A DNA stretch of 63,806 nt, counting the filler, from Conidiobolus incongruus B7586 (Eukaryota): NCBI GenBank assembly GCA_000697335.1. It is 8 parts of 8 records of this genome, joined end to end, with 100 filler letters (N's around TTAATTAATTAA, not from the genome) between each part and the next. Parts side by side here need not be neighbours in the genome. Positions count along the whole stretch, not along the records: positions 1 to 10,246 come from JNEM01006123.1; positions 10,347 to 27,599 come from JNEM01006127.1; positions 27,700 to 29,344 come from JNEM01006130.1; positions 29,445 to 47,535 come from JNEM01006131.1; positions 47,636 to 53,452 come from JNEM01006132.1; positions 53,553 to 60,419 come from JNEM01006134.1; 2 more parts are not named here. One strand, written 5' to 3'. Numbering within the stretch: position 1 is the first letter of the stretch; every line of letters starts with the position of its first letter. A program made the position numbers and the translations under genes. The notes below the pieces were generated by a model. It did not search any database and had not been told where the DNA came from. It saw nothing but the letters and a program-made list of their open reading frames with translations. Of the stretch, positions 3,451 to 59,116 are shown piece after piece.

Positions 3451-4360
3451 TTTGATGAATTATTTTAAATATTAATAACAAATAATAATTACAATTTTCA
3501 ATATTTTTAATAATTGAACTAAATTACATCACTCTTTGTCATCGTTTATGGGTTCAATTTAAATTATATTGATTTAAATTGATAATTATGCATTTTGAAA
3601 AATTATGTCAATATGAAATAATTAAGCTGTTCAATTATTTTCTTTCAAATTATAGCATATATAATATAAAATATTTATTATAAAATCTCACAATACAGAC
3701 ATACTATCGTTGTTAAATATTTTCTAATAAGGATTTTCTTAAAAATAGTTAAAATATATAATAATATAAAAATTTAATTAGTTTTGGATCTATGGTATTA
3801 AATGTTTATATTGAGTCATATGGATACCAAATCATGGTACATTTATTTTATGTATAAAAATCTCGTAAATTTAATGAATCCATTAATATATGATTAATTC
3901 CATATTCAGTTATATTTTAATATTGATTAACTATCTTATTTATTGAAACATATCATTATTAAACTAAAGTCATATCAAATAAATTGAATTCTTGAAATAA
4001 TTGTTTATAGTGATAAAAAATAAAAATTATTATTAATTATTGGTCTAATTAATACGTTATCTATAAGCAATATTCTGATCATAACAATCAAAAGTATTAC
4101 CAAATAAATAATTTTTATTAAAATACAAAAATTGCGAATTTTTTTTATAAAAATGATGGATATAATAATCATCTTCAATTCATGGAATAGCTAATTCTAA
4201 TAATTTTCAAGCCTTCAAATAACTTTCAAATTTCATATTATATCCATAGTAATTTAATTGTCAGAGTTTTTTATTAATTTGAAATATTAAATAAATGAAT
4301 AAAAATTGTATCATAAGAATTTTAAATTAAATACTCTACAAATAAATATATTTAATATTA

Positions 4361-5814
4361 CTATTTGGTGTGCTGTTTAACTAAATCGGTCAATTGGTGA
4401 GCTAACGAGGAGAACATATTATAAAAATTAAATAAATCAGGTTGAATTTTGAGGGATTTGTTTTCACTACATTTTACAAATAACTGGATTTTAGCGTCTT
4501 GGAGTTGAAGTTTGTCCATGATCTCTAAACTAATTTGCAGGATTGATGGACTCATTTGTAAAGAGTGTCGCTTTTTCAGTTCAATGTCGAGTTGGGGCAA
4601 CTGTTGATAGCTCTCAGTGGTGGGGTAGTCCAACTTGAGATTCAGGTCAAATGCAGAGTCCACTAGTTCCAATCCCTTATATAAGTATTCTTGATTGCTG
4701 CATTTTTTACAACTTTTAATGAGTGCTAATAGAAGCCCTGAGTCAAATTTCATATTCCTCTGAGTGAGCTCCTTATAATCGAGTTTAGGGGTATCTGGGA
4801 TAACATCATCGAGGGAGTACTTGGATCTCCTACTTTTCAAAGGATTACTCTTGAGCTTGAGCTTATGTCTATTCTTCTGAATAAATTGTTCAAATGATAT
4901 GAAATTTTCCAAATCCTGTTTGTAATCTAGCCAAATAGAAATAACTTGTTCAAAAGCATCATCTGGAGCAGGAATCGTTGACAATCCATTAATAACGGTT
5001 GTATAAGAAAATACATCAGGAACAATTAATTTTTTGGGATCTAAAGGTTCATCAAATTCATCAGTACGTAGCTTGTTGCCATAACCATAACATTGATATA
5101 ATAAAGGTTGCTGTTCTCTCAGTTGATCGTAAAGTTCAATCATTTCCTTGAGTTGATTCTTTTTAGAGTACATATTTAATAAGTTGTTATAATGAATAAT
5201 ATTTGCACCAGGAGTGTCTGAATTCATTTTTGGAACAATATCCAAATGATCATGAGGCAGTTGAACAGGTTCATTTAATTTTTTAGCAGATTCTATGAGC
5301 TTTTGAGCGAGACGATTGGAGTTGATACCTGGATTATTGGAGCATCCCTTTAATAGGATAGTATAAGTTTGTGGATTTGGTTTAAATCCTCTCTTTTTCA
5401 TCTAATTAATTGATTAATAAATGTAGCTCACTGAATATGAAAAACATTTGAGCTCACTTTATTATACATTTTATATGCTGCTTTCAATCTATTTAATTTA
5501 ATTAATTCCTCAATTAAATGGTTATAAACGACTGTTGACAATTTTCTTATTGGTGTATTGTCCACTAGTTCGATAGCTTCTTCAAGTCGATGCATGTTAG
5601 CCAAGCTAGTAATATGCTCAGAAAGTTGATAAGCATCCATTGAATGCTTATTATTAGATCTACTTACTTTCCCATTCGAGTTAGCTCGAAATTGAACATA
5701 TCGATTATTTAAATTTGAATTTATTATAGTTGCCAAAAATTGAGGATTTTTAATAAAAGAGTTGAATAAGTAATGATTATTACAAGTTGAGAATTTTTGG
5801 ATTAATTTTATCAT
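4361..5814 (-). CDS. Pentatricopeptide repeat (PPR) protein, probably mitochondrial (2 exons)
   Basis: Exons 5814-5458 and 5401-4361, intron GTGAGC...TAG. PPR motifs VVYNHLIEELIK...AYKMYNKMKKRGFKPN, QTYTILLKGC, IIHYNNLLNMYSK, PDVFSYTTVINGLS. Confidence 0.88.
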
Positions 5815-6108
5815 TTTTAATATATATTTATTGAGTTTAAGTTATTATAATATTATTAATTTAATTTTGAAAATTAAAAATTTAATAAATTGCTTAACGA
5901 ATATTTAAGATTTTTAATTAAACGTATTTATTTATGGGATAGAAAATTGGTAATTAATCTTTAATTTTAGAAAAATAGATTAAATATTGAATGATTAATA
6001 AACATTGTATGCTAAATGAAAAGACAGAATTAATCGCCTTGATTTAAAATTTACTATTATCATTATTTGTAAATAATTTAACCAAAATTATGATGAAGAT
6101 AATTTAAA

Positions 6109-6483
6109 TTATAAAAATAACACTACCAAACAAAATACGCCGAATAAACCTACGCCAATGACGGGAGTAGCGGAAACGATATGCTGAGGCTCAGAGTTAT
6201 AAAAATTCAATTCTGTATTAAAAAAGCTCTTCTTCGGAGGCGATGGCGACTCCTTAGGAGATTCCACACAAGATATGAATGAATCAAAATTCAGGGATGA
6301 AGGAGAGCTTGTCAAAAGTTCCCACCATTTGATCAATTTTTTAGTTGTATTCAGATTCTGTTTCAAATTGTATAGTTTAATTTCTAAAACATCATTATCA
6401 TCGTTTATATCTTGACATTGATAAAGACTTCGATATTGATTTGCCCCTATCTTTAATGATTCGAAAGAATGTAACGCAATATC
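6109..6483 (-). CDS. Last exon of a hypothetical protein with C-terminal hydrophobic segment; upstream exons unresolved
   Basis: Open frame from a CAG acceptor near 6484 to the stop at 6109, ending VIGVGLFGVFCLVVLFL. No recognisable family. Confidence 0.35.
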   Translation of the reverse strand, partial: DIALHSFESLKIGANQYRSLYQCQDINDDNDVLEIKLYNLKQNLNTTKKLIKWWELLTSSPSSLNFDSFISCVESPKESPSPPKKSFFNTELNFYNSEPQHIVSATPVIGVGLFGVFCLVVLFL

Positions 6484-9400
6484 CTGGTTTAATGATAAAA
6501 TGTTTATATGGTTGAATGTGACTTATCTATCTAAAAATTCATATCTATTTATCTCTAATATCATATATTCCAACATTACAGCATAAGTTAAAATATTTCT
6601 CGCATTGATAATCATCTCTTATAAAATTTAAATGTAAATGAAAATGAAAGAAAAGTCATAACGATGACATTATATTTAGTCAATATATATGAAATAAACC
6701 TGATACATAATTATTACTTTATCATTAAATTTTGTTATTAAATTTTAATTTATTAAATACTTGTTAGATTATAACCAATCAATTTGGATTTTAGTTATTG
6801 AACTTAAAATTGAACTTTTAACCCTTCTTGAAACCTTTAATTAAGAATCCTTCACTGTCTGAGAGTATTATATTATATAATTTTCAAGGACTTTTATATA
6901 TATTATTATGTATATAGTTTACTATATGATTTGTTATATTATATAAAATATCTTTAAAAGTTTGAATATGTAAGTATAATTAATATTATCAGTATTGGTT
7001 TTTGTTTTAATTATTATTAATATTATGCGAAGTTTTAAAACTAAAATTTAAAAAGTAGAGTATAAAGTAATTTGACTTTAAATTATTCAAAATTTTATAA
7101 TTAAATTATCTAGTATACAAAGTATACTCAATTTATTAATCATTTTTATTATTCATTATTATTTAATTATATAAATCCACTTCAAATTGGGAATATATTA
7201 TTAAATTTTATATTCTAGATTTTTATTATTTCTTATCAAAGAACTTTAATAAAATAAATATATCTTAATATAAAGATATCAATAAATATATTAATAGAGA
7301 AATTTTATTATAAAATCAATAGTGGTAATATATATTAAATATGATAACTATTTTATGATTATATCTTAATAATTTGATAATATATTAAAATAGAGATATT
7401 TTAATTTTTAAAATAGTTCAATAAATAAATTGATATTAAATAAAATATATGGCATTTTATCAATTATATATTAAAAAGTAGTATCCAAATGGAATATTGG
7501 AAAAATTATATAAAAAATAAAAAATTGATATTTTAATACTCAAATGGTTTAAATCATATTTTATGCAATTATGAATTTTTCTAAAATATCAAATATTTGA
7601 ATAAGGTTCAGATTTAAAATTAAATACATAATATCCTTTTATTTAATCACTTTAAATTTGAATCTTTTAAAAATTAAACCATGTCTTATATTTTTTGATA
7701 ACAATGAAAAAATAAAGTACAAATATAAGTATTTAATTAATAACAGTATACTCACCTTAACAGTCAAAATGAGTATATATGGAAAGTATATGTTTAATAA
7801 TTAGTGGTATTTCAATGTATATCTGTTTTAAAATATTGGGGAAGGGTTATATTATTTCTTCAACAGTGCTAACATTATAGACTTAGTTCCAATAATATGA
7901 ATGGTGATAGATAAAAAATTAATCTATCAATGGTGGCTTTTCAGTTAATGATTCATGATTTAAGCTCAAAAATACACTTGTTAAAATATCAATTTTGCTT
8001 TTATAATTAGATAGGAGATTTAAAAAATCTCCATAAAATATATATTATTCATCTTATCAAATTGTTTTCGCAATTGAAATAGGGTAAATTAGAATAGTTT
8101 AAGCACAAGTATTTAATTTGATTTAATTATATTGCTGCTGATCTGTTTTTTTTCAACTCACTAGTTTAAAGCAATAAAAAATTTTGATTTTGGTGATATT
8201 GGCTTTACCTATTATTAAAGATAAAATATCCTTTGTGATCTGGATGCTTTTATATTATAGTACAAATTATTGCCATAATAACAAAGGATTGATTCATAAT
8301 TCCCTAAAGTAAAAAAGAATAAATAAATTGATAGATGAGTGATTTTGTACTTTAGAAGCAAGCTCTTTAATGAATATTTGGTTCGAAGGTGTAATTTTTA
8401 TAATGGTGATCCATTAAATGAATGCCAGTTGTTTACTTCAAGTGATTTAATAATGATGTGTAAAGATAGTAATATTGCTAATGTGTTAATATTCAGTCTC
8501 TAGTGAGTTAGAGTGAATATGAAACAAAATTTTGAAAATTGTATACTATATATTGATGAATAACAGGATGTCATTGATATTTTGTCAGTCAAACTGCAAA
8601 TTAGAAAAGATTGTTCAGAATATTGAACTTGCTTAAATATATACAAATAAGAAAGAACTACAAATGATTCATCGAATCTATCACAATATTATAATATATG
8701 ACTAACAATTATTAAACGAGTTATATATTCTGTAGCTTCTTAGCACCTATTTCAATACTATGTATCATTCACAAATATAGAGATAATTTGACTCAGTTAT
8801 TGTGAAATATTGTATTTTTTTGAAATAAACTAAATCTTTGTTGATATATTGAAATAATAAAATAATAATGTCAAACTTTTTCATATTGAAAATTGATAAA
8901 CTAAAATAATCAAATTATTGTAAAAAATAATTTTCAAATTTGATAAATATTTACTGTCAGCTTGTTATTTCTGATTCTGATGATGATGGCGTACGAGTGC
9001 AAATTCGATACATGACTGAAATCAGGTAAATAAATTGTAAATCATATTAAGTATATGGTATCTAGGTAGATGAAAATTGAAAGCATCTATGGCAAGTTTG
9101 GAAAGTTTTTTCAGAATTTCTGAATATTGTTAAGTTCCTATGTTCAAATTGAATATAATTATCTATATATTCAAGAGAAAATTCTACCCTATAACATCTA
9201 AAATGAGACTTCATAGCCTCAATATGGTTAATAACATTGAAATAATTGAATCAGATGATTGAGGGAAGTTGCAAACATAAATAAAATGAAAAACACCTGA
9301 TCATTTTGCCAATGACATTATATTTACCCTAAATTCAATTATTTTGATTTAAAGAAAACGTCTCATGAATAATGAGTAGTATGCTGGCATTTTTAAATAT

Positions 9401-10246: not shown

Positions 10247-10346
10247 NNNNNNNNNNNNNNNNNNNNNNNNNNNNNNNNNNNNNNNNNNNNTTAATTAATT
10301 AANNNNNNNNNNNNNNNNNNNNNNNNNNNNNNNNNNNNNNNNNNNN
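10247..10346. other. Assembly linker (44N-TTAATTAATTAA-44N)
   Basis: Identical 100-nt spacer with stops in all six frames, found 7 times in the window. Confidence 0.98.
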
Positions 10347-12853
10347 CTAAATGAATGAGTGAGTTCGTAGTTAACATAAATAAATCTATATTTCATTCTT
10401 ACAGTTTCTGTGAAGTATTTGAATCTCAAATCATCAGCATCCTTAAAATTAGTACATCTGACTTTGTGGAAAATCTAAAGACAATATATTAAGTTAATGT
10501 TACTTGATGATAATTCGAATCTTGAAACTACCTGTTTAACAGAAGTTCTAACTTTAGCCAATTGATCTTTATAATCCAATTTGTATTTGATTTTACCAGC
10601 AATATTCAGAGCATATTTGTTGAAGATATTTAGGAGTTCAGGGGATAAGAAAGATGATAAAAAGATATTCTGTCTAAGGGTTGGTAATCTAATATAAATG
10701 TTAGTCACCAATTATTTGAAGTAGTGTTGAATTGTAAACTTACTTGTCATTCAAAACATATTGCTTAACTCTGGAGAAGTCACATCCGTGTGGATTCACA
10801 GGTATTAAATTGAGGTGAGAAAATATATGGGTGACATGATCCCAATTTTGCATCATCATATGTTCGACTTGATCCATACACAATACTTCAATACTGGATA
10901 AGAAGTCATGATCTCTCTTTTTATCACTAAAAATCAAAATTAGTTTTTTGTATTATATACATAGAATACAATAACTTACCCAGGTGCGCCAATAATCAAT
11001 CTTAAACCTAATGGGGAAGCGACAAGGATATCTGAGTCATAGAAATTGGCATAGAGTTTCAATGAACCCTTAGTCAACTTAATACCCAATCTAAAGCAAT
11101 CGTCATTGTGACCACTGAAAGCTTCAATAAAATCAGCTAAATCATAAAATTAATAAATCTGTATAGAAATAAATAAATTATAAAATATACCTGGTTTATT
11201 CTTATTAATTTTATCTTCTTCAGGAGCTAAATAAAATTCTGAAATAAATCTATTTTTATTTTCCTAATATTATAATTTAATTAATAATTAATACTTTAAA
11301 ATAATTTAATAACTTACAACTTCAGCACCGATAATATCCATAAAGAATCTAACGATTTTATAAGCTACAGATCTGAAAGGGACTAAAATTAATACTTTGG
11401 GACGAACGTAACTCCCATCTCGTACATCACTATATAATCATATTAATTGAGATATTTTTTGAATTTATATTAAATTGTAATTACTCTAGTGGTTTGCCTT
11501 CTTTTCTTGCCATAATTAATTGAGAATTGTTGTTGGTAATTTCTTTTCTCACTCTATTCAAATGTTAGTATATTATTATTATTTGAAACAAAAATAACTA
11601 TATACTTGATTGCGTGGTTTAAGGCATGAAGCAGATAAGTTGAACGGATTTCAGGAGTGTTATCAATGGTTCTGTGGGGATAAAGTACATCTTGATATTG
11701 ACTGAGTTGGTTGAAGAGTTGAGCTTGGAATGGCGTAAATAAGTTTTCGTTGGGGTCCAATCCATTTTCTAACAATTACATTAATATTTTTTTGATATTA
11801 TTAAAACCAATATTTACCTTCTAACAAAGCTTTATTTGCCTTTCTCCATCCTTCTTGAATTTTATATCTCACAGACCATTGATCCAAAGTTTTAAAAGAT
11901 TTATAGCTAGTTGAATCGAAAGGGATATTGAATTGCTCTTCTTCAACTGATAACCTCACAATTTTTCCATATTGATCTTGTAAATCGCTTTCAATTGTAT
12001 CTGATTTCCATTGCTTTCGCTTTGATAAATCTGATAAAACTTCTAAATGTTCTACACCATAACTATTATCTCCAAAATGCTTGAAGAAACAATCATCTCC
12101 TTTAACACTAACAGTTTTGTCATTTTCGTCGTCAGTTTCCATATCTTCTTCCTCTTCTTTAGCATCTTCGAAGTCACCAACATTTCCATTAGCTTCAGTG
12201 TTGAGTGGTTTGGTTAAAGAGTCATCATTCATATGATCGATAAATTCCTCAGTGATTTGAACATTTTCAACATTCTTATCTTTCTTAATCTTTTCATTCT
12301 GACCTGTTTCCCTCTCCTTCTTAACCTGGTTTACTTTAGCTTTCTCTGGAAGATTCAAAATAGATCTCTTAGAATTCCTCTTAAACTGACCCAGCAACTT
12401 ATTCAAACTGGATTTATTCTTATTACTAGGATTTAATTTAGAGTTGAGAGAGTCTAAAGGATTGAGTAACGATGATGAAGAGTTCATAATAGGCAGATTT
12501 TCATATTTTTTGCTGTTTGATTCAGTTTCAACCCTGTTTAAAGTAGGTAAATCGTTTTCCGTAGATTCGATTAATTCGCCCTTAGCGTTGAAAGTCCAAG
12601 ATTTTCTACAATTGAATTGAATTAATACAAAAAATTTTAAATATGAAATTTAATCAAATTACTCATCAGCAGCTTCGATACCCTCTTCCCCATTTTCATT
12701 GAATTGAGCGTCTAGTGCGTCCAGAGTACCGTAATCCTCCAACTGTTGCCTCTGTTTACGACTTAAACCGCCACCCTTAGAATTTGATTTTTTAGTTCTA
12801 ATAGATTGACTTTCAGCCTCTCTAAGCCTTTTTAATGCTGTTTTCTTTCCCAT
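10347..12853 (-). CDS. UTP25: U3 snoRNA-associated protein 25 (Utp25/DEF family), multi-exon, 3' end lost at the linker
   Basis: Basic/acidic N-terminus; [80 protein letters not shown]...[20 protein letters not shown]. Confidence 0.92.
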
Positions 12854-13277
12854 TAATTATTCTATTTTTTTTTTGTTAATTCAAATTTTTAATAAATTTT
12901 CGAATTTGGATCAATTTATACCCTAAATAGGAATTTCACTTTATGGGATTAACTTTAAATTTTATTCTAAAATCATTATTTTTGATTTAAATTATATTCT
13001 TGGCTGAATGAAAAAAAAACAAAATAAGCATAGCATCAATTAATTAATCACTTAACTGTTGAAATTACTTATCACCTATTAAATATACAAACTATTATTA
13101 ATATTTCAATATTATTATTAATTTATTTTTTTAATTTAACCAAATATAATCATAAAACCCATAAATGAAAAATTCCAATTTACCAAAATAAATTATGAAT
13201 GAAATTGGGTCCTCATTATAATAATTTGATAAAATTTTAATTAAATAAACTTTATAAATATTTTTTTAATATTTAAA

Positions 13278-13776
13278 ATGACTGTTACTGCTGAAGATAT
13301 CAAACAAGCTATTGAAAGTCGCATTAAATGTACTCATGTGGTAATTAATAAGCTATTTTTATACACTAAAATCATAATTTATCAATTTTAATTTATCATA
13401 TAGGAAGTAACGGATACTTCAGGTAAAAAAACTAAAAGATTTTATTCAGTAATACAACTTAATAATATATTATAAAGGAGGTTGTGGTCAAAGCTTTGAT
13501 GTCATCGTAGTTTCTGAAGAATTTGAAGGACTTACCTTATTAAAGAGACATAGGTAATATTTGATTTAATATAATATCTATTAAATAATAAATTTACAAA
13601 TCAAATTTTTTAGATTAGTTAACGAAGCTGCAGCTTCTCAAATTTCTCAACTTCATGCCTTCTCTCAAGTAACTTTATACAAATAATATATAAAATTTAT
13701 ATAAATACTAATTTTATATTAGAAAAATTATACTCCTAGCCAATGGGAAACTCATCGTCAAAGCATCAGTCTATAA
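13278..13776 (+). CDS. FRA2: BolA-like protein, BolA2/Fra2 type (5 exons; missed by the ORF track)
   Basis: Spliced product MTVTAEDIKQAIESRIKCTHVEVTDTSGGCGQSFDVIVVSEEFEGLTLLKRHRLVNEAAASQISQLHAFSQKNYTPSQWETHRQSISL, with the DxSGGCG, RHRLVN and HAF motifs. Confidence 0.9.
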
Positions 13777-14730
13777 TTTTTATTATTTAATTCATTTTTT
13801 ATATTGGTTTTTGATGAATAAATTACCATCATTTCTTTACCTTTATAACTAACTATTGATAGCTTTTTTTATAGATGAATTGGAGCTTGGGATATTTATG
13901 AGCTTAAATTAATTTGTGTCATTAATTTATTTTGACTCTTTTTGTAATTATATATGAATTAGGATACGTTCACTAATATACATATTTAAGGATATCACAC
14001 GTATCTTAATTATAACAACTTAATAGGCTTTATATCTTCAATCTATAGTATATCATTGTAAATTGTTGATTTAATTTTTTTAATTCGATATAAATTTCGA
14101 AAACATTTATATTGATTAGCATTATTTAAATAACTAATCGAACCTATAATAGTAAAATTAAACTTTTATAATAGTATAAAAATTCGATTTTCTTGATCAT
14201 TTTATCATACTTTAATAAATAAATTTATTTATTTTAATCGTAAAGAGTAGAAGCAATATCCTCAGATTTTAATATTCAGAATATGTCTTATTTCTGAACC
14301 TGATTATTTTCTGCGATAAAAGCAGCCAAAATAAAATACCTAATAAGGGAATTTGAACCTTTTATGTACGGAAAAATGAATGAATTTGGTATATATGATT
14401 ATAAAAAATCAAGGTTGGGTAAATGGTATCGAGATCAGGATAACAATTTTATTATTTCAATTTTTTGATTAGAATATTTATCTAAACTAAAATCTCTAAA
14501 TATAAAAATAAAATTTATTCAAATATATTTTAAAATGATAAGATTTTTCCATATTAAGTGAATTATATTGAACTTAAGATCATATGAAAATTCCATAACT
14601 GAAACAATAAATTAATTTCACTTTATTACTTGAGCAAAACCAAGTCACCCATAAAAACCAAACTAATTTAATCGGCCTTATCAAAGTTGAATAGACAGTT
14701 TGTTCTTGTTTAAATTCTAATATAATAAAT

Positions 14731-15462
14731 ATGGCTAAATTTAATAATAAGCTAATCATTCATAGAAATTTAACTAATAGTGAGAATTTATCCAACTTGT
14801 CAGAAGATATTCGAAACGAGCTTGACAAATGTCCTTCTGTAATTACTTTACCTGTTTTGTGGGGTCAGCAAGTAAATTCAAAACACATCCATTGATATGA
14901 ACTAATATAATTTGATAGGATGCTAACCAACATTTGAACAATGTCAACTGGCTACGGTTTGCAGAGTCAGGTAATTTAAATATAGCTAAAATAATATCAA
15001 TTACTGAAAATCTTCAATAAGGGCGTACGGATTACCTAACACTATTGAGTCTATATATGGACCCCCAAGAATTCTTCCAACTCTTTGGCAATAATTCTGG
15101 AGGTTTGATAGTAAAAAAAGTATCTATGAATTATATCTTACCTGTCACTTATCCCGATTCGGTAATCCCTTAATCATGAGAAATACCTTAATTTCTAATT
15201 ATTTTTATAGTTGACAGTTGCTACCAAAGTGAAAAATTTAACCAAGGATTCATTCATCTTTTACACCAAGTTCTATTCACACGCAAGAGATAGGTTAGCT
15301 GGAGAGAGTGAAGTATTAATGGTAGGATACGACTACAAACTTGGAAAAAAGAGTGACATTCCTGAAAATGTGATGAATGCACTCGCCAAATTGGAAGATG
15401 ATCCGAAAACTGCTCAGGAATTGGCTTTACAATTACCAACTAGAATTTATTCAAATCTTTAA
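14731..15462 (+). CDS. Hotdog-fold acyl-CoA thioesterase (4HBT/YbgC-like), 4 exons
   Basis: PVLWGQQ|DANQHLNNVNWLRFAESG|RTDY...YILPVTYPDS|LTVATKV...VGYDYKLGKK; ends YSNL. Confidence 0.88.
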
Positions 15463-17206
15463 TTGCTTTAATATATTTGATTCAACCTTTTTAATTATAT
15501 ATATTTCGATAGATTAATTTTGGAATTTTCAGACAATCGATTATGAAATAGTAATTATGCATTATATAACTTTTTCAATTATTACTTTTCAACTTGGAAT
15601 TGATTTTATTTTACTTTTCGATGTATAATTACAATTTATATTCATTGTCAAAAATACTAATGTTTAGCTTATTTTTTTAATATAAAATTATACTAAATTA
15701 AATCCTTAATATGTATAATATAATCTTTGAATTGTTTATTAGTAATCAATTAAAACTAACAATGATAGAACAAGTTATAAATGTTTTATAATAATATTTT
15801 TGAAATACAAATCATTTTAATATTATAAGTATTATTGTATATGTTACAATATAATCGAAATGTTTAATCATAATTTTGAACAATAATTTATTTATTTCAA
15901 AATCACTCTATTTGTGTTATCAATCCTAAAATTTTTTAACTAACCTAATATAAAATTATTTGCCAATTTTTCTTCTGAAAATAGTATTTAAATAAAGAAT
16001 GGGAAATTTAAGTCGATATATGTGAATGTATCTAATAAGTGATCAAGTCACTTTTTCTTTATAATTTTATCCAAAATTTTATAATTAACCAAAAATAATA
16101 ATATTTAAAATACATTACCATAATTATATCATTATCAGAAAATCAATAGTTGAATTAAATAACTCAAGATTGTAATTTTTCGAAGAATAATTATAGAAAT
16201 TATATTGTTATTAAACTTCAGACTATTTTAGATTCTTGTACCAATATCCAATATTTTAATTTATAATAGTAAATTTATATTTAATAGCATTATTTTAATA
16301 ATTTTGTTAATACATATTTACTAAACTAATAACCTATTTTATATTAAAGTTTAGATTATTTTTTCTAAATTACTTAATTAACATTATACTTAAATATATC
16401 CTAAAAAATATTCGAGTGAAAGAGAATATTAAATAATATAAAAAATATAATTTGATAATTTTGGATTAAAATTTCAATATTATAATTTTTCTGAAGTATA
16501 TTTGTAACCATGATTATTAAATGATATTTTGATGATATAAATAACTATAATAATCTTAAAATTTATAATATAAGCCACTGGTTTTAATGAAGTTAGCTAT
16601 TAAAAGGTATTGAGATAATTAAAAATGATAAAGGTGATTGAATCACTAATAAGACTCGTTTTTATTTCAAAAATTATAGTAATACATAACATAGTATCAT
16701 TTTATTGAAATAATTAAATTTAAACAATGATTTCCGAAAGGTTATTCATAAATAATTTACAATATCAAGTGGCCTATTCTAAGGGTGTTATATCAAAAAT
16801 GTTCTAATTAATATATAAATGAACAGATATATTTTTTGAATTAATTTATATAATTATACTTTAAATTAATCATATGAGAAGCTAAAAATATTAATTAAAA
16901 TAAATCAATAATAAACTATTCAAATATAATATTACATATTTTAAGGATATAAATCTATCATAAATAAAGATGAATATGTCTACCTAATATCAATATTTGT
17001 TGATAGTGAGTCTATCTAATAATATACAAATTCATTGCAATTGAGTAATACATCATGCAATTATAATCTTTCAAATATTTTTAATACATAATTGGAATGC
17101 ACTATTGGTAATTTGTGAACTATATTTTTGAATCAAAGCTTGGTAAAATGAATTTATTATATTTCTATAATCTAATAATAACTGTATCAAATATTTTAAA
17201 AACGCC

Positions 17207-17940
17207 AAAGATTTGAATATATACTTATTAGTAATTGTAAGGCTAATTCCTGAGTAGTTTTAGCATCTCTTTCCAACTTCGTCAGTACATTTACAATATT
17301 ATCTATAATATTACTATTTTTACTAAGCTTAAAATTGTATCAAATCACTAACGTTTCACACTCCCCAGCTAGTTTATCTTTGGAATGAGAATAAAATTTG
17401 GAATGAAAGGTTAACGAATCCTTGGTTAAATTTTTCACTTTGGTAGCAACTGTTAGCTATATAATAATTGATTAATGGCAATAAAGGGATTAATCTTGTG
17501 ATGAATGGATATACCGAATCGGGATAGGTAACTGGTAAGATATAACTCATGGATACTTTTTTCACTTTTAAACTACCTGAATGATACTGAATGCTTGAAA
17601 CTCTTAGGGTTTCAAATATAATTCAAATAGCATCATATAGTTGGAACGTCCTATATTTTAAATATTAGTAATCAATATAATTGAGAATGTAATTATTATA
17701 CCAAATTTGCAAATCGTAGCCAGTTGACATTGTTCAAATGTTGGTTAGCATCCTATCAAATTATATTAGTTCATATCAATGGATGTGTTTTGAATTTACT
17801 TGCTGACCCCACAAAACAGGTAAAGTAATTACAGAAGGACATTTGTCAAGCTCGTTTCGAATATCTTCTGACAAGTTGGATAAATTCTCACTATTAGTTA
17901 AATTTCTATGAATGATTAGCTTATTATTAAATTTAGCCAT
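17207..17940 (-). pseudogene. Thioesterase pseudogene, inverted paralogue of 14731-15462
   Basis: Same exon layout. In-frame TAA at 17604-17606 (CAA in the paralogue), a frameshift in exon 3, and TGA at 17340-17342 (GGA in the paralogue). Confidence 0.85.
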
Positions 17941-18691
17941 ATTTATTATATTAGAATTTAAACAAGAACAAACTGTCTATTCAACTTTGATAAGGCCGAT
18001 TAAATTAGTTTGATTTTCATGGGTGACTTGGTTTTTATTGAATAAAATAAATTTATTATCAAACAAATTTAATTTAATTTAATTACTGTTTCGAAATCAA
18101 ACATTTAAAAATTCAATCAATGACACAATAATATTCATTATTACTTTTCATTGTTTTTAGAGTAATAGCTATATTAATAGTCGAACAGGTTTATCTTTTT
18201 TGTTTATCACAATACGAGATATCGAGTTGGGCATTATGTTACTTTATGTCTTCAATCTTGAATACTATCATGATTAATACAGATATCAATATTGGGTTTT
18301 TTTTAATTCGTAGCAAATACTTCAAATTATTAAAAAATTAAAATAATATTATATTTATATGATTTTTATTAACCAAAATTTTTATTCCAAAATATATATG
18401 ATTTTACATTATTTTATTACTACTGAAATTTGATCACAGGGTAATTACAAGTATTTTACAGACAATTGATTATTTAACAAAATCCAAAATTCGATATATT
18501 TTATTGTGAATATGTGGTATTAATATATGCATGATTTTTATAGCTGTATATATTTCTAATAGGGTTCAAACTTATTAAAAAACGTAACTCTACAAATAAC
18601 ATTTGGAATTAAATAATAAATCTTTGAATAAAAGATATAATATTATATAGATTATATTTATTTTATAAATCTAGAGCAATCAATACAGTAT

Positions 18692-19025
18692 TGTGGTTAC
18701 ATAAATGTTAACCCGCCCGACCAACTTCATCTCGCGATCTATTACCTTATGGAGTCTTAACCCCAAAAGACCTATCATACCACTTCAAAGTCTCATTCTT
18801 CTAGCAACCCAATACACTTCTTTACACTACCTACAGCAGACAATTGGTCTATAAAAGAACCACTGTCGGGACACATTACCATCATCACCTCCGGTCTTCT
18901 GTGAAGCCCATTAAACCCTTAACAAACCTCAATAAAACACTCTAACCTAAACTGCCAAACAGGTTAATAAACAAGCAGCTTCCTTATCTATTATTAATGT
19001 TCTACTAGCAATCGGTAGAACCACA
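18692..19025 (+). mobile_element. Solo LTR (334 bp) with 4-bp TSD GTAT, probably Ty3/gypsy-type
   Basis: 7-bp inverted termini TGTGGTT...AACCACA. GTAT at 18688-18691 and 19026-19029. TATAAAA at 18850, AATAAA at 18931. C-rich against an AT background. Confidence 0.85.
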
Positions 19026-20006
19026 GTATTTATCCTTTTGAACTGTTTTTTGGTATATATATAATTTTTCAAGAACTATATAACAAATAGATAATGTTTT
19101 TAATGTTAAAAATTTAGTAAAAATGTCAATAAAATTGAATTTATTTTTGATAAAAATGATATAAGTTCAAATTCATAATATATAATCCCTGATATATTAT
19201 ATTATTATGTTCATAGAATTTTATCAAACTTCATTACTTTATATTTTAAGATAGGATATGTTTTTAAAGTTAAATCAAAATATAATTTTTAACACATAAT
19301 GTAAAAATATATATATATATATATATTCTCTATCATTAATATCTATTAAATATATTTTTTTCAAACTTTTATTATTCAAATACCAATATTTTTTTTAAAA
19401 AAACAAATAGTAACTGCCTAAATAAGATATAAAATCTGAATGAGCTTGATAACAGACATGATGACAAAGTTATAATTTTTATACATTAATAGTAATGATG
19501 AAATATGATATATGCGTATATATATATATATTACATGTATAAAATTTATTTTTTTAAAGAGTTAATATAATTATTCTTATTTGAGTGATAACAAGTTAAT
19601 TTAGGAAATTCCAAGTTTGATAATAATAAAAAATTGACCTCCCGAAAATTTAAGATCTTTAATCATGGAAAATTAGAAATATCCACTTTCAAAATGGGCT
19701 GACAATAACTAATCAGAGTTGCTGTGAACCACTAGAAGAACCAATTGTATGGATTTTTGAATTGCTTTTTTGAATGTTAAAGACACAAATTTAAGCGTGA
19801 GGTTCATATGATTATTATTGACAATAAGTAAAATTCATTTCAATATATTCTTTTAGATTTTTTATATATCAATAATAAAGGTTATATTATAAAATATTAT
19901 AAGATATAGATAAATATTAACTCAATTGTAAGTTGAATAGAATATTATGAATAAATTTGAAATTTAATAATATTTCGATGTGTTTTAATTTACTAATTAA
20001 TTATAA

Positions 20007-27699: not shown

Positions 27700-27789
27700 A
27701 TATTATAAATTTAATAAACTTTTAAATAATTGATTATATATTTAAAGTATATTTTATTATTATCAGTATTATTTTTATATTTATTTATA

Positions 27790-44561: not shown

Positions 44562-47535
44562 ATTAAGATTAACTTGAACCATTTCTTCCAATTATGAATA
44601 TAATTATAATTAATAAACAATTTAGAATAAAATAAATTAATTAAATAACAATTAAAATCTATTTTGATTAAAGTTTCATTCAATGAAATAGAGTTCAAAT
44701 GCTACCATATTGTCAAGTATTTATATCATAATTTAAAACTGAAAAAATTTCAATTAAATCATTTACCACATATTCCTGAGGCTAAAATTGTTACAAGTAC
44801 TAAGTTTAAGTGTAGCAAAAAATATCCGTTGAATTAGAATCAAATTTGAAAATTTCAAAATTTTGTTAGATTGATTAACTGTTAGTTTTTGTTAATCTTG
44901 GATTAAATTACCCGATTTGACTTAATGTTTCAAATTGTTGTGATTTTGAATCAAGCTATTAATTTAATATTAGTGATTTAGTTAAATACATAACAATATA
45001 TATTCTTTATTATTAATTTGGGTTATTTTAGTCTAATTATTATATAATTCTTTTATTTGTTGAAAAGTTTAATTTAATCAAATAATGAAGAGAGAATAAA
45101 CATACACCACATATAATCAATATCCCTACGAAGGTGTTGTTTGATCTTAACATTTATAGTTTAGTTTCAATCCTCCAATCTCCGCTAATATTATATTTTT
45201 AATTATCAAAAAGTAGAATTTAAGTTCTTCAACTAAAACCCAGGGTAGAACAATATTGATTAATAATATTCGGTTGATTTACTAAGTTATACTAACTATA
45301 AAGATAATTTTAATAAGAATTGATTAGCACGTTGCATGTATAATATTAATATCTAATTCGAGATTAAGAGGTATGTAATATTTATTTTGATATATATATA
45401 TAACAATTTTGAATGCATCATCAATACACTAAGAACTGACGTTAACAATTCCTTGTAGTAAATTCAACTTAATAACTAGTTATAAATGAGTTTATTTAAA
45501 TATATCATAAAACTTATTTACCAAATAAAATCCAAATCCAAAAATTTTCATTTTTAACAATGATTTAATTAACTTATGGTTACGCCTACCATATTTTTAT
45601 ATTTGATATATTAGTTGAATAATGTGGCGGATCTCAATCAATGCTTATAAAATTTTATATCTGCTTAAAATAACACTCTAATTGTATTAAATTAATTATT
45701 TACATTGATTCTCTATCCAAAATATAAGTTAAATTTTGTATTAATATATTTCATCATATCTCAAACGTAAGAATGTTTATTTAACTATTTTAAAGATATA
45801 ATAAATATTCTCAATTCATATTTTTTATTACTTATAAAGTCCTATTATTTAATAAGATAATTCAATAGTCTTTATATTCAAAATTAATAAATCAATTAGA
45901 TTAATTCCATATATGCATTTCTATGACAAGATCAGCTAATTAAATTTATTATATTCTGAAAATAACTCTGAGTTTTGATTTGATAATTTAACCAATATTA
46001 TTTCTAATTCATATTGACTTTCTTGGTTCATAATTAAATTGTACACTTTGTTCTCTGTTAAATTTTAATCAAACCTTATGTAATTGACTGAACAAACTAT
46101 AAAAACCAAAGATTAACAAAAAGAGGAGTTTTTTTGATAATTTGCTATAAATTTAAATAATCAAGTTTAAGAAATAAAGTCAAAATGTTAAAAAACACTA
46201 TTAATAAATTAATTTATTAAAGTTTATTATAAGTTCTTTTTGAAAAATAATTTATATTTATAAAACATAATAAAAACATAATAAAATATTTATATTAGAA
46301 TACTTAGGATTTTGATAACTTTGAAATATTAAATTGATCAAATTAATATTAATTATTTTTTACCAATATAATATTATCTTGATATAATTAATATAAAATT
46401 TATTTCTCATATTATTTTATTGGGCAAAATAATAATAATAATAAAGATAAATCAAAATTTATTAATATTATTTAATACTACCATAATAACAATTGGAAGA
46501 AAATATAAAACGGACTTATGTAATATGTATTATTATTAATACTTGTAAAAATTATTAATTATAATAATTTACAATATTTATGTAGAAGAAATATTCTTAA
46601 TTGATTAATATCTTTAATCAGATAAAAAAATAAATCAAAATTTTAGAAAATATTCACTTAACAAGGTTGTATATTTAAAAAACTTGTAATCTTATAACTA
46701 GTTTAAATATTATATTAAGTTAAATAATACAACTATCGAAATATTGATTTGAAATATATAATACTACGGAAATATAGCAATAACAATTATTACAAATCTT
46801 ATATATGTTCAAAAAAATATAAAGATAAAAATAGTCTATTATTAATAAGAAATTATCTTATTATATACTCATAAATATATATCTATTTAACCAAATTTAT
46901 TTTTAGATTATTTTTATACTATTCATTATTAATTTTGAAATAAATATTTGTAAATTTATTTTAATAGTTAGTCGTGGGTTCAATTTTATATAAGATATAT
47001 ATTTTAAAGTATTAGATATAATCTATTTTCAGGATTTATTTATCAATTTTCATATAAAACATGGTTATATCCTTTATTTTATATTGATTTGCTTGTTTTT
47101 ATAGTCAGAGAAAGAATTGATTTAATATATATTAATATAATCATTTTATATATTATTTTATATTATTTATATATAATAATATATTAAAAGATTATTTAAT
47201 TTTAAGTTATATATATTCTGCTTTTATGACTTTGCTTGACTAAATATCTTAATAACTATATTCTTATTTTGTAAAAATATTATAACTTGCAAAGTTAAGC
47301 TATAAAAAAATAATAACTCATATATTCTGCTAAAAATGAGATTATTCTTAATTAAATTAACTTAGACTAGGGTATAATTAAAGTATATTATTTGATTTTA
47401 ATAAATTATATTTATTTATATTTAATTTATTATTGGATAATAATTTAAAACTTAAAATTTAATAATAATAAGCTATAAACTAATATGTTTATAAACTAAT
47501 TAGGTATATAAAATAAACATTATTTAAATTATTTT

Positions 47536-50680: not shown

Positions 50681-51924
50681 ATCAATTATAATTATCAATC
50701 TAATTTGTTTAAACTGAATGATATCCCTATTTATACTAATTACTCGCATTAACTCCCCTATATTTAACTTTTTTGAATAAATAATATCAGCAAAATTTAG
50801 ATTCAATTCCCGATTTAATTGGTTAATCTTTCACAAATTTATGCTATTCTATATTTATTTATTTTAGAACATCAAGTTATGAGAATTATTTTCTTTTTTT
50901 GGTATACAAATAATATAAATTCCAATATTTATATTTATATTAGCTGAGAAATATAGAGAAATTAATAATTTAGGAGATTTGGTCAAATAGGGTACGACAT
51001 CTAATTTTAAAACAAATTTTTTTTATAATTAAGAGATAAAAAATGCACAGCCTATATTGAGTGAATAGTTTTCTAAATATAGGTTCAAAAGAATGCTTTA
51101 TGGTTGTAGTGAAATGTAATAGCAGTGTATTACTTGTACGTCAGATAGATCAGGATTTTACATCCCTGAGCAAGATATATATTAATACCAGAATTGGATT
51201 AGTTTTAAAAATGATCTCAATTTAAATAATTAGTAAACATTACATCATATCTCTGACAACAAAAATTAAGATTTGTTATTTTTTTGATCTGGATTTGGTA
51301 CGCTATATATGAGATTTCACTTTAATAATTATAAAAACAACTTCTTAGTTATATTTAAAATATTTAAAGAATCTTAAATTGGAAATTATATGATTAACTT
51401 CTATTAATTTATTATAATATTTTATATTCTAATTTATTACTTTAATTATTTAAGAAGTATATATGTCTTATTAACAATATTAACCTGATAATATTTTATG
51501 TTAAAAATATAATGCTACTTGGAAACATCCATTATATTATTAAAAAATTAGGGTTTCTATTGCTAAAGTATTGATATAAATTCTGATAAAAATATAAAAT
51601 ATTAATATTATATTTCAAATTTTAATTAATTTAATATTAAAAAACTTCAAATAATGATTATTAAAATGAAATAATTATATTATCAAAAATAAAACTTATC
51701 TTATAAAATAGAGGTAAAAAACATTCTATAAAGGATATATTCAATAATACCTGATATTTGAATTAATAAAAGGAGAATAATATTTTTTTAAAAATATTTA
51801 ATTTTAATAAAAAAGTTTTTTTTAAAATATAATTGAATATAACTTCCAGATATAAATAATTTAAAATTAATATATTTTTTAATTATTATTTGCTTTTCGT
51901 TATATTTTAAAAACTTCTTATATT

Positions 51925-52060
51925 TGATATTATTTTTATATTTTAAAAAATTATTTTAATTAAAGAATCTTTTATAAAGTAAAATAAAAGTTTAAATATT
52001 ATTATTAAAGATTAAATAAAACTTATTAAAATAAGGTAATTTAGTTTAATAAAACAAATA
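51925..52060 (+). mobile_element. Older Tc1 transposase fragment interrupted by copy B; left limit approximate
   Basis: TAA AAT AAG GTA ATT TAG TTT AAT AAA ACA AA reverts to WNKVIWSDETK. Homologous to 28440-28570; ends at the TA before copy B's TIR. Confidence 0.65.
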
Positions 52061-53452
52061 CACTAACCTATAAAAGTGAGTTATAAAATCAAAAAAATTT
52101 ATATTTTTACTAATAACTTGATTAATATTTAATAAAATAAACCTAAATTAAATAATTAAAATCTATTATATTTATTAATTATATATATCATTAAATGATG
52201 ATATTTAGCTATTAATTAGTTAAAATATAATCCCTTAAATTTTACCTAGGGTGAGTTATAAATTTATATGTTTTTGGTGATAAAAAAAATTGAAATCTAG
52301 TATATCTATCTTTAGCTTTTCTAATTTCTTTAAGTTTATAAGGTATAGAATCAATTAACTTCTTATATTAAGAAGGGTTAATCTTATTCTATATTTCTTA
52401 AATATATTTTTAAAATTAATCTAAATCTTTTACTAAAGGGAAAAATTTAATAGCTTTTTTTAACTGAACTTAAAGATATTTAATTAAATTAAGGTTAGGA
52501 GATTAAAGAAACTATTTCATAACTATTATCTTGTTATTTTTAAGTTATTTGGTAGTAAAAGCTCTAGTATAGCAAGAGGTATTATCTTGCTTGAAAATAA
52601 TATCAGATTTATTTAACTTATACTATTCAATGGTTTTTTTCAATTCATTGTTTAGAATACTTTAGTATATTTCAACATTAATTCCATTATTAACTTTATA
52701 AAAATACCCTATATTTAAAAACAATATATATCCCTAAATAATAATTAACCTATGATTATACTTTTAAGTAAAATTAACATAATAGTTATATAGTAATTCT
52801 GTATTTTTTCTAAAGCATTTAACCTTTCTATCAAATCCATTAAGATATATTTTTGCTTTATTAGACTAAATAACCTTACTTTAATTAGTTTTAGTTTAAT
52901 ATTAATAATGATATTTAAACTCCTGCCTAGTTTTAAAATAGGATTTCTTTAATTAAAGGTGTTTTTTCTTAAAATATAAGCAGTATCTATGCTAATATAA
53001 AGTATATATAATAATATTAGTGTTAACTAATATTCTTGTATAGTTTTATAATTCCTGCTATATTTCTACAATAGTACTATAATTACCTATATTAACTAAT
53101 CTATAGATATATTTTTTATTATATTCATCTATAATTTTAGCATATTTAAGTTTAAGTTTAAATGTTTCTTTATTGCTATTCTTAATAGTTTTAACTATAA
53201 TAAACTAGCTAACATTAGTAATTCTAGTAATATCATAAGTTAATTTACCTTCTTTATAAAGTTAATTAATACACAAGTAGATTTTTTTAGAGAGGGATTT
53301 AGGTATAATAATACTAATAAAAAAAATTTAATATATTTATAAAATATTATAAAAATAATAGCAAAGAAAGAAAAAAGATATGGTTATATATTATTAAATA
53401 TATTGTTTATTCTTAAAAACTTGTAAATTTATAACTTATCTTGGTTAAATAT
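52061..53452 (-). mobile_element. Tc1 copy B, hypermutated, cut by linker
   Basis: TA|CACTAACCTATAAAAGTGAGTTATAAAATC terminus; reverse-complement homology to copy A throughout; direct repeat GTGAGTTATAAA at 52076 and 52251. Confidence 0.9.
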
Positions 53453-54629: not shown

Positions 54630-56030
54630 ACCTAGTTTTGTACACAATTATGTTAGCATTCAGCCATATTTATATTATTTAACTATTTTCTCACGGATGA
54701 TATAACCAGTATTATAGATCATTTATCATTTTAATTTCAATTAAAATTTACACATTGAACCTAATTAAAATCCATTAGATTTGATAATTTTCAGATTGAA
54801 TTTTGAGCTTTGACATACTTCAACTTTTCTCAAGCTTATAGTATTGGTGGTGGATCTTTCGGAGTCTTAGTCCATATGTTTTATTTGATATTAGAGCTAA
54901 TAATTTTGCATACCGTATTTAGTTTTAAATACTTATAATTCGATTTATTTATCAGTTTCAACTAGGTTCTTTTTATCCAAAAGAACAATTTGAAAGGTGG
55001 ATAAATTAATAAAAACTTTATCAATTAAATTAATTTAAATGTTCACAATATGAAAAATGACAACATTGTTACAAATATGATTTTTATATTGTTAGAATTA
55101 ATTATTGGAATGAATCATGGATTGAAAGATTCATAATATGTGATCGAAAATATAGAGATTAATTGCTTTTAATTAATTTAATCTATCAAATAATCAATAT
55201 AAGAAAATATTTTCAAGTCGAATAAAGGATAGTTTTCACACATTATAATGTTTTGTGTTAATCAAAATTATATGAATGACCAATTGATTAATTTAAGATT
55301 ATTATGGTATTTATCTTTATAGGATTAAAATGGTTCGAACTAATATAAATCTTAAATAATGATGTTACTAACATTTTAATCAATTATGATATTAACCACG
55401 AGTAAAATTTTATGACATAATTTAAGTTGCATCAATTCAAAATAATTTTAAACAACTCAAAAATTATGTTTTTTAAAAAAAATTTTAAATCTATCAATTT
55501 AATAAAAATTACTTATATATATCTTATAATTCTTATATTCATTATTTGATTTTTTAATATTTTGTGGCAATATTGGTTGCATAGATCTCAATTTAACACA
55601 GGAGATATTGTTGAATTGGGCGTTAGGCCATTATAATATATTCCAATTAAGGCTTGGTCAACTTTTTTATTAAATAATATTAATTATATATGAATAGGAT
55701 AATAATAAAATTTAATTGATGATATAGTTATTGAACAGATGACACTAATTTAAAATTACAGTAAATAACCTAAAAAATATTTATTTTAACTCATAAAAAT
55801 TTTGTATTCTCTTTATTGTTGACCTTTAAAAAATACCTTTGGTTTAAATAATATTATCAACATTGGTATTTCAACATTGAGATTTATTTATTTAATAGTT
55901 AAAAAATTAATTCATTTAAATTTATAAATATTGAAAAATAGATATTTTTCACAAACTTAAATATCATAATCATTAAATCAAAAAATCAAATTTTATTGTA
56001 AAAATTAAGAATCATATATTAATACAATTA

Positions 56031-58612
56031 TTAAACATTCAAATTGCTTAACAAATCTACTAACTTATCAACCTTGTTGTCAGTGTCTTGATTTGCCATC
56101 TCCGCCAACATAATCAGTTTCTTGATACCAATTGGTAAGTCGTTCAACTGTTCATTAGCATTCAATGTGTTGGTCAGGGCGTTTAATTCGTTGGGGGTGA
56201 AATGATCCAAACTCTATAGTCAAATATTAGTTACAAGCTATGAGCATTATCTGTGGTTGATTTACCTTGACAACATTGTGAATTTGCTTACTGCCAATGA
56301 CGTTGGGAACGTAGAGATCCGCATCGAAACAGTCCAACATACTCATTTGGTCCAGGACGCCGCGGTTGGTACATGTGGAGATGAGGAGAAGACGATGATT
56401 CTTAGGAGGTCTCTTTTTGAGTAAGACCATTAAGGCTTGGAGGACTGTGTTAGAGAATCTGGGACCAATAGGAACCCAATCTATATATATATATGAGTAT
56501 TTTATATAAATCAAATGGAATCAATTTATATTACCTAACAATCTTTCAATATTATCAATGACAATGACCGATAGTGGCGATTTATAAGAATCCACAAAAA
56601 CTTTGTTAATGGCTGCGGTTTTAGAACTTTCGTTCATGCCCACCATAGTTTCAGGGGATATCAACTTAATGAAAGGGAAACTACTGCCCATGGCAATAGT
56701 GGCAGCGAGTGCAGATTTACCAGCTCCAGAAGGTCCATGCAACAGGACACTGACCAATGGAGTGGATTGAGAAGTCTTCACCTGTTCGACGAATAGTTGA
56801 CCATCATTTAAGATACGCTCAACGTGGTATTCAAATGGAATGATGTTGTTTTGGACTAGGAGTTGGAGCTCGTTGTCGCTGACACCGAATGCGGGTTTGA
56901 CTTCTTCTAAAGCGTTGAGGAAATCGTCGCGAAGCACTTTCATGTTTTCGACATCGTCACTCACTCCTGCCATGGTACCAACTTTGACGTGACGGTTGAA
57001 TGCGTAGGATGATGCGCTTTTCACCAAACCTAACAAACTTATCAGAATTATAATACTATAATAATGGATATTGATAAAAATTACCTTCAATCTCAGCACC
57101 ACTAAAATTCTTAGTCAATTGAGCCAATTCGTGAAGATCGACATCGGGACCCAGCACGTCGTTACTTCTCATCTTAGAGGTATGAATTTGAATAATTTGG
57201 TAACGTCCATGCTCGTCAGGCAAACTTATTTCAACTTGGACTTCGAGACGTCCAGGACGTAATAAGGCTTCATCGATCATATCCAATCTATTAGTCATAC
57301 CAATTACTAAAATATTGTTGAGCTGTTCGACACCGTCCATCTTGGACAACAATTGATTTACAACAGAATCGCCAACTCCTGTTCCTGAAGATTGAGAACC
57401 TCTCTGCTTACAAATGGCGTCCAATTCATCAAAGATAATGATATGAAGTGCACTTTCATCTCCCTTTTCCTTGTATTCCTTTTCGGCATCTGCGAACAGT
57501 TTACGAATGTTTTCTTCAGATTGACCTACGTATTTATTCAAAATTTCGGGTCCGTTGACAATCTTGGGTTCCTTAGCATTCAACATCTTGCCAATTTGTC
57601 GAGCCATTAAAGTTTTACCAGTACCTGGGGGACCGTGCAACAGGATACCTCTCACGTGTTTAATTCCTAGCTTTTCAATCAAAGTTGGAGGGAAGATACG
57701 CGAAGCGAAAGCTCTTCTAAAAATTGCCGAGAATTCAGTATCTAACCCACCGATGCCCATATCCTCAAATTTGAAATTGGGTTGAATTATATTGGCTGCT
57801 GCAGATCTCGTCTTCTGACCCTTTAACTTAATAGGATTATCACCAGCTTTGACGAAGTTGATACTGGTTTGGTCCATGAGCACTCCGCTGTGGATTTGTG
57901 GATTGTTTCTTGCACTGGTGGTATTGGATAGGGATTGGAGATCAACAACATTGAGGTTTAAGACTTTGGCATGTAAGTTGATGCCGTGAAATTCAAATAC
58001 CATAATCTATTAAAAAATTCATCATAAATAAATTAAAAATATATTGATAAAATTAAATTACTTGTCCAATACTAAATATTTGGTCTCTAAAATTCTATAA
58101 GTTAAAATCAGTAAATGTTTAAATGTAGTAATATCAATATAAATAATTAATACTTGAATAAAAATTGAACTCATTTCCTGAACGTCAAATACTTCATTAG
58201 TTTCTACAACTTTTTTCAAAAAAGAAACCTAAATCAAAATAAATAAAATATATTCAAATAGAAAAAGAATATAATCTACTTCAAATTCTATTGTTGATAA
58301 ATAACAATTGCCATTATTATAATCTTCAGGGCGATAGGGTTGTAAACTGACTTGTTGATTAAGTGATAAATAAGCCCATCTACGTTGAATCATAGATGTA
58401 CCAATATTTCCCAGAGGGACGGAAGCATCACGTCTAAACTTAAATTAAATTTCATATGGTGTAAATTATGACAATATTTACTTGACAGTAAAAATAAAAG
58501 CGTTATCCATAATAACGTATTTGGCGTTAGGCAAGTCATTGGGGTTGATAATTGCACAATTTGTTAGTGCTAAGCTATCTTTAGGACACTTTATTACTTG
58601 AAAAACTGACAT
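56031..58612 (-). CDS. SEC18: Vesicle-fusing AAA+ ATPase NSF/Sec18, multi-exon
   Basis: [54 protein letters not shown], second Walker [18 protein letters not shown]. Confidence 0.96.
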
Positions 58613-59116
58613 GTTTTGATTTATTTTTTTAAAGAATATTATTATTGTTATTAATAAAATATTAATTTTTGATTGAATTGATATTAAAGAATAAGTATAA
58701 TTTAAATGAGATATTCATTTTTAATTAATGTTAAGTGGGATCAATTAATTAGATGATGCGGTTAATTAAAATACCAGTCAAATTGGGTGTAATTTATTTG
58801 GCAATAATTGTTAATATTCCAATAAATGCTGCAATTTTGTGTTATGAAAATAGCTATAAAATGAATTTAATTTATTATTGTAATAACAAAATAAAAAATA
58901 GTGTATAAATTATATTAATAGTTATTAATTATTTTTGATTGATTTAATATACTATTGAATATTCAATATTTTCAATATTTTCAATTTATTCAGATTTTTT
59001 CAAATAACTGATAGAACTGTAATTTAGTTATTTTTTAACTCTTCGTTATTAATCTATGATTTTTCAACTTCTCAATCGATTTATATATTATATTGATTTA
59101 TTCATGAATTTATTAT

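Follow-up and report, generated by a model that had tools for sequence, protein, structure and literature searches.

CCCATAA, a positioned upstream motif in AT-rich Conidiobolus DNA and a candidate core-promoter element at the TATA position

Several promoter elements are known which occupy the place of the TATA box, or deviate from its consensus. The TATA variant CATAAAA, carried by the human beta- and delta-globin genes and by the -31C allele of IL1B, is bound in vitro by the TATA-binding protein (TBP), with a dissociation constant of 29-46 nM compared to 7 nM when the IL1B allele reads TATAAAA; how strongly the variant drives transcription differs widely between reports (PMC3570547). Favoured TATA positions in mouse are -31/-30 with a pyrimidine-purine start (PMC1779604), and TATA-to-start distance is approximately 30 nt in fission yeasts and Yarrowia (PMC7849388). 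Homol D (CAGTCACA), found in fission yeasts within about 100 nt of the ATG, is a positioned fungal core-promoter element which can outweigh a TATA box (PMC4770384, PMC4138321), while the budding-yeast GA element (PMC3217976) and the plant TC[-39,-26] elements (PMC2842252) are non-TATA words at the TATA position which seldom occur together with a TATA box. Here we describe the motif CCCATAA, most often in the form CCCATAAA, in 63,806 nt of DNA from Conidiobolus incongruus B7586 (GCA_000697335.1; eight parts joined by filler, hereafter the window). The non-coding DNA of the window has a GC content of approximately 18% (82% AT).

CCCATAA or a close variant was found on the sense strand, 83-166 nt upstream of an ATG, in 8 of the 12 intact genes of this one window, which form the gene set for all counts, to the exclusion of a broken thioesterase copy and a decayed helicase-like gene. 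Of the seven exact copies, six are in sense orientation and have their first C 83-124 nt upstream of an ATG; these, together with the variants of the ICP55-like and SEC18 genes, make up the eight independent sites counted. Distances are given to start codons which are backed by homology for SEC18 and UTP25 only, the other ATGs having been picked by eye from the reading frame. A preliminary description of this DNA had placed nine sites on the sense strand and had reported the motif to be missing before MET5, ERD2, the GMC oxidoreductase gene and a secreted-protein gene; all nine sites were recovered, and no copy was found within 300 nt of the latter four genes. The sites are as follows, the predicted start being the A at +32 from the first C:

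3545-3552, minus strand: CCCATAAA, first C at -102 from the LEA-like ATG (3450); predicted start A 3520 (TTA)
5931-5938, minus strand: CCCATAAA, first C at -124 from the PPR ATG (5814); predicted start A 5906 (TTA)
12940-12947, minus strand: CCCATAAA, first C at -94 from the UTP25 ATG (12853); predicted start A 12915 (AAA), with no pyrimidine before it
13158-13165, plus strand: CCCATAAA, first C at -120 from the BolA ATG (13278); predicted start A 13190 (ATA)
14648-14655, plus strand: CCCATAAA, first C at -83 from the thioesterase 1 ATG (14731); predicted start A 14680 (TTA)
20880-20887, minus strand: CCCATAAC, first C at -100 from the thioesterase 3 ATG (20787); A at 20855 (TAA)
25870-25877, minus strand: variant CCCATATA (CCCATAT), -166 from the ATG (25711) of the ICP55-like gene (M24 peptidase); predicted start A 25845 (TTA)
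58732-58739, minus strand: variant CCCACTTA (CCCACTT), -127 from the SEC18 ATG (58612); predicted start A 58707 (TCA)
18016-18023, minus strand: CCCATGAA (CCCATGA), -83 from the ATG (17940) of the broken thioesterase copy; not independent of thioesterase 1
33328-33334, plus strand: seventh exact CCCATAA, inside the decayed helicase-like gene and antisense to it, with no A at +32; taken as a chance copy

When the eight sites were stacked on the first C, CCCA was present in all eight, with A at -2, the following T and A at +7 each in 7/8; CATAAA is present in five of the nine promoter sites and the full CATAAAA in one. The flanks of the sites are unrelated to each other. No antisense copy of CCCAT was found in the promoters of the 12 genes, giving an orientation of 8:0 in favour of sense (P =0.008), a single orientation relative to the gene as for a canonical TATA box. 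The UTP25 and BolA sites are two outward-facing copies within one divergent promoter, and an apparent longer likeness between them was not returned as an inverted repeat.

The total number of CCCATAA copies in the window (7, compared to 10.06 expected) is not high, being reached by 87 of 100 whole-window shuffles, and the signal is therefore wholly one of position and strand. Elsewhere in the non-coding DNA (35,333 nt, both strands) no exact copy was present. A look-elsewhere test was performed on all words of 5-8 nt in three band widths within 250 nt upstream of the 12 genes, against a second-order background; the winner of this blind search was CCCATAA (6/12 genes in one 45-nt band), whose score was reached by none of 400 shuffled promoter sets and none of 400 random non-coding sets. 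When the paralogue thioesterase 3 was dropped, CCCATAAA was present in 5/11 genes, a result again reached by no set of either null. The positional pattern is real within this window, which confirms the preliminary description on this point. At 14648 and 18023 the sequence is backed by reads (contigs with 0 differences), as it is at 12947 and 13158, although these reads may stem from the sample from which the window was built.

Only one distant position, +32 from the first C, is invariant among the eight promoter sites; it is always an A, lies 30 nt after the C of CATAAA, and is preceded by a pyrimidine (YA) in 6/8 sites and by two (YYA) in 5/8. Against rotated or shuffled flanks the summed score at +32 gave P =0.003-0.004 for any offset and P =0.0002-0.0005 within +30 to +35, and was stronger without thioesterase 3 (P =0.0016). 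At other non-coding CCCAY sites an A was found at +32 in 6/18 and YA in 2/18 (Fisher's exact test against the promoter sites, P =0.002 and P =0.003), and at genic CCCAY sites in 17/43 and 10/43, respectively. The idea of a TATA variant was on record before the +32 signal came up.

Genes with and without the motif also differed in canonical TATA boxes. TATAWAWR was found between -200 and -30 in 0/8 motif genes compared to 4/4 of the others (Fisher, P =0.002), and between -200 and -1 in 1/8 compared to 4/4 (P =0.010); in shuffles the latter region held TATAWAWR in at most 1/8 motif genes in 152 of 5000 and in 4/4 others in 160 of 5000. The canonical boxes of the contrast class are:

39951-39958, minus strand: TATAWAWR, 138 nt before MET5 (no motif)
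44718-44725, minus strand: TATAWAWR, 164 nt before the secreted-protein gene
50728-50735, minus strand: TATAWAWR, 55 nt before ERD2
54667-54674, minus strand: TATAWAWR, 45 nt before the GMC oxidoreductase gene

The motif itself departs from this consensus, having 1-4 mismatches to TATAWAWR and a C at position 1 in all nine sites. TATAAA occurs 355 times in the non-genic DNA of the window, compared to five occurrences of CCCATAAA, all five in promoters.

The preliminary description had proposed a core promoter element, and this gains independent support from the fixed A or YA at +32 and the lack of a canonical TATA box in the motif genes, all of it signal read from sequence. We put at nearly an even chance the reading that CCCATAA(A) is a core-promoter element at the TATA position, with transcription starting on the A at +32. 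TBP would sit on the CATAAA part, as a weak TATA variant, recognition of the two further invariant C's would fall to a partner (TFIIB, TFIIA or another factor), and transcription would initiate at the A 32 nt after the first C. A possible rationale is that TATAAA, being everywhere in 82% AT DNA, cannot for that reason mark a promoter, whereas CCCATAAA is confined to promoters.

A number of observations weigh against this reading. The conservation peak is CCCA (8/8) and not the TBP footprint; there are at least three mismatches to TATAWAWR in the UTP25, thioesterase 3 and SEC18 sites; and the upstream TFIIB recognition element (BREu, SSRCGCC) is not matched, with 3-4 of 7 mismatches at all nine sites and only its final CC fitting. 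The +32 score rests on eight sites and was defined after their inspection; the six exact sites alone gave P =0.10 for any offset and P =0.009 in the TATA window, a plain pyrimidine-purine test gave P =0.012 with eight sites and P =0.135 with six, the A in 8/8 taken by itself has P of approximately 0.06 for any offset, and weaker A peaks are present at +13 and +19 (7/8 each). An A lies 30 nt downstream in only two of the four canonical TATA genes, and TATA variants in Arabidopsis are, like the TC element, not spatially tied to the initiator (PMC2842252). Starts at +32 would leave four upstream ATGs in the BolA and thioesterase 3 leaders. Finally, DNA runs of one sample hold a second, diverged copy of the UTP25-BolA spacer; at 80% likeness its alignment covers neither motif, ending 4 nt short of one and resuming 20 nt after the other.

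A wider claim, that in most Conidiobolus genes the canonical TATA box has been displaced by the C-extended box CCCATAAA and left to a minority class, is in our view doubtful. CCCATAAA would then be read by TBP, TFIIB or TFIIA whose specificity has shifted, displacement having come about because TATAAA is uninformative in 82% AT DNA; if true, a free-living lineage of fungi would have rewired its basal promoter code.

A serious possibility, at rather less than an even chance, is that the motif is the site of a dedicated sequence-specific factor acting in the manner of Homol D or of general regulatory factors. Such a protein would bind in a fixed orientation a short way 5' of the start and bring the machinery to promoters that have no TATA box, with TBP not reading the motif at all. 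Most of the information resides in CCCA, at the margin of the TBP footprint or beyond it, and the SEC18 site CCCACTTA keeps both CCCA and a TCA at +32 despite four mismatches to TATAWAWR; the invariant CCCA, and the three sites with 3-4 mismatches, are better accounted for by such a factor. Precedents are available in Homol D, which precedes starts by approximately 45 nt (PMC4770384) and lies no farther than 100 nt from the ATG (PMC4138321), and in the GA, Reb1, Abf1 and Tod6 motifs, which seldom co-occur with TATA (PMC7849388). The spacing from motif to YA, however, is TATA geometry to the base, and the Arabidopsis initiator is spatially tied to the canonical TATA box only and not to the TC element (PMC2842252). 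No fit to the motif was obtained with the words of Rap1, CSL, telobox, CArG, YY1 and Homol D. In favour of a dedicated factor, CCATAAA, a posterior-Hox/Cdx homeodomain word, is exact in 5/9 sites, with four more non-genic copies outside these promoters. It is fairly probable that one or other of these two accounts is correct, and hence that the motif is a core-promoter element just upstream of the start.

It is improbable that the motif marks a regulon of one functional class, for example mitochondrial, read by a CCAAT-like NF-Y/Hap complex of altered specificity. Within their first 25 codons the LEA-like, PPR, thioesterase 3 and ICP55-like proteins carry 3-6 basic residues and none that is acidic, N-termini suggestive of a mitochondrial presequence, and this holds for 4/8 motif genes compared to 0/4 others; CCCAT is also one base from CCAAT, with 2-4 mismatches to the 9-nt consensus. 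Against this, UTP25, BolA and SEC18 are not mitochondrial by family, CCAAT boxes work both ways round whereas the motif was found in sense orientation only, and the fixed A at +32 would be left unexplained. The same presequence-like N-termini bear on the class of constitutive, housekeeping genes to which the preliminary description had assigned the motif, an assignment only loosely backed here: four of the eight motif genes appear to share them, the LEA-like gene is not typical housekeeping and ERD2 is without the motif.

We consider it just as improbable that the motif is part of the transcript, whether as an initiator or as an element of the 5' untranslated region read as RNA. Strict strand bias would then be natural and a CA dinucleotide is present; on the other hand, no unusual RNA fold was found at the three sites tested (z 0.48-0.98), and a clustering of upstream ATGs just after the motif (8 within 45 nt compared to 3.5 expected, 1 farther on compared to 6.3 expected) fits a start downstream of it, weakly given that the far zone is poor in G. 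Depletion of upstream ATGs was set aside as evidence for the start on the same ground, AAG also being lacking in the far zone (0 compared to 8.1 expected). Chance, or a repeat relic picked post hoc from a small gene set, is very unlikely: there are only 12 genes, two of them paralogues, with starts set by eye and an overall count below expectation, but the pattern survived the look-elsewhere null with and without the paralogue, no copy lies in the 35.3 kb of other non-coding DNA, which includes decayed dispersed repeats, the site flanks are unrelated and no repeat pair links the two divergent copies. A branch-point or polyadenylation signal was also considered and rejected, as no exact sense copy lies inside any intact gene and two copies sit in a divergent promoter without an upstream 3' end.

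The motif was further compared to described consensus words. The Rap1 box of ribosomal-protein genes (ACACCCATACAT) showed 2-6 mismatches in 12; the CCAAT box 2-4, the core reading CCCAT in a single orientation; and the telobox or Tbf1-Teb1 site (telomere repeat of the AAACCCTAA type) 2-5 in 9, no telomere repeat of this lineage having been found in print. The VATB context of symmetric N6-methyladenine sites in early-diverging fungi (PMC11258239) is not matched either, the motif consensus reading C-AT-A. No description of this motif in fungi, nor of any promoter motif for this lineage, was found in a literature search which took in few subscription papers and no supplements. The preliminary description's claim that the motif matches no recognised fungal one stands for the fungal motifs compared, but its CATAAA core is found in human promoters as a TATA variant to which TBP binds (PMC3570547).

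Pfam, with which 65 reading frames were scanned, backs the PPR, UTP25, BolA, thioesterase, M24 peptidase, sulfite reductase, ERD2, GMC and AAA assignments and gives no LEA family for the gene labelled LEA-like. The MET5 product has 86% identity to a Conidiobolus coronatus protein, the next matches listed being at most 42%, and the best-scoring named match of normal architecture for the AAA exon of SEC18 is from Neoconidiobolus thromboides (77%); by these protein matches the host is therefore a Conidiobolus relative (Entomophthoromycotina). No close metagenomic relative was found among the 120 protein matches listed per query, and a single metagenome scan with the PPR query returned 1 locus of 122 candidate stretches, which was 26% identical, approximately 47% GC and unrelated. 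No credible Rfam family and no transfer RNA (tRNA) were called within the window. At 10291-10302, at 27646-27657 and in further gaps, TTAATTAATTAA is flanked by runs of N and represents an assembly linker, not biology.

Sequencing runs were found to hold diverged extra copies of 10400-26600 and of 12790-13340, coding DNA collapsing at a depth of approximately 90-140 and spacers assembling apart at approximately 30; at 16486-17513 one extra copy is approximately 81% alike. The genome may accordingly be duplicated, hybrid or polyploid. In three runs labelled with the same species, matches to 10400-26600 were short and scattered. The second UTP25-BolA spacer copy aligns only at 12831-12936 (10 differences) and at 13185-13214; this last, a 30-nt stretch within the BolA promoter, takes in two upstream ATGs as well as the predicted start at 13190, and is identical in both copies, partly by construction (contig junction).

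A tract of 298 nt (14659-14956 and approximately 17715-18012), comprising the leader, two exons and an intron, is identical between thioesterase 1 and the broken copy, which is inverted, the whole pair being 81% alike; recent gene conversion or an assembly effect may account for it. The broken copy has an in-frame stop in its last exon, and its mutated motif is one of two differences just before the identical tract, a single change which cannot show relaxed selection. In a MAFFT alignment the motifs of thioesterase 1 and 3 were not in register, such that conservation between these paralogues is by eye only.

The decayed helicase-like gene (30800-33800, minus strand; presumably DNA2-like) has many stops and frameshifts and weak AAA_11/AAA_12 matches, and a CCCATAT at 34465 (minus strand), with no A at +32, lies approximately 700 nt before its first clear ATG. 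An element of 40% GC at 18690-19030, single in the window, has a read depth of approximately 2900 compared to 30 and is a high-copy repeat, perhaps a solo long terminal repeat. Four decayed, extremely AT-rich copies of one dispersed repeat (27785-29344, 52037-53450, 60601-62200 and 62408-63794) adjoin assembly gaps and are 79-86% alike to the third. An isolated island of 45% GC at 34630-34730 matched nothing in Rfam, was not called as a tRNA and showed no fold out of the ordinary, and GC-richer islands or reading frames without a Pfam match at 6112-6522 (minus strand), 1161-1600, 41100-41500 and 59100-59600 are possible gene or transposon relics.

The motif yields a precise prediction, namely a start at +32 from the first C. 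If this holds, it would provide a simple handle for start annotation and promoter building in Entomophthoromycotina, and a case of turnover of a TATA-position element outside Dikarya. CCC-like signals are also present upstream of genes in microsporidia, which are AT-rich fungal relatives; there the signal is a triplet close to the ATG, whereas here it is a 7-8-mer 83-166 nt upstream. Homol D is likewise a positioned element of fungal promoters but is unrelated in sequence, with 3-4 of 8 mismatches to CAGTCACA at the window sites, lies approximately 45 nt from the start compared to the approximately 30 nt predicted here, and is enriched in ribosomal-protein and small nucleolar RNA genes, a class absent from the window. 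The GA and TC elements share with CCCATAA its presumed place at the TATA position and the scarcity of accompanying TATA boxes, and differ from it in sequence, and the TC element has no fixed initiator spacing, whereas the window motif apparently has one. The human CATAAAA variant has in common with the motif the CATAAA core, a C at TATA position 1 and the same presumed distance of approximately 30 nt to a pyrimidine-A start; in human it is a deviation of single genes, while here most genes of the window have as their shared consensus the C form with two further invariant C's, and conservation is lower in the 3' half of the box. From its sequence pattern in this one window, the positioned promoter element described here is real and apparently undescribed, and is best read as a variant of the known elements at the TATA position.

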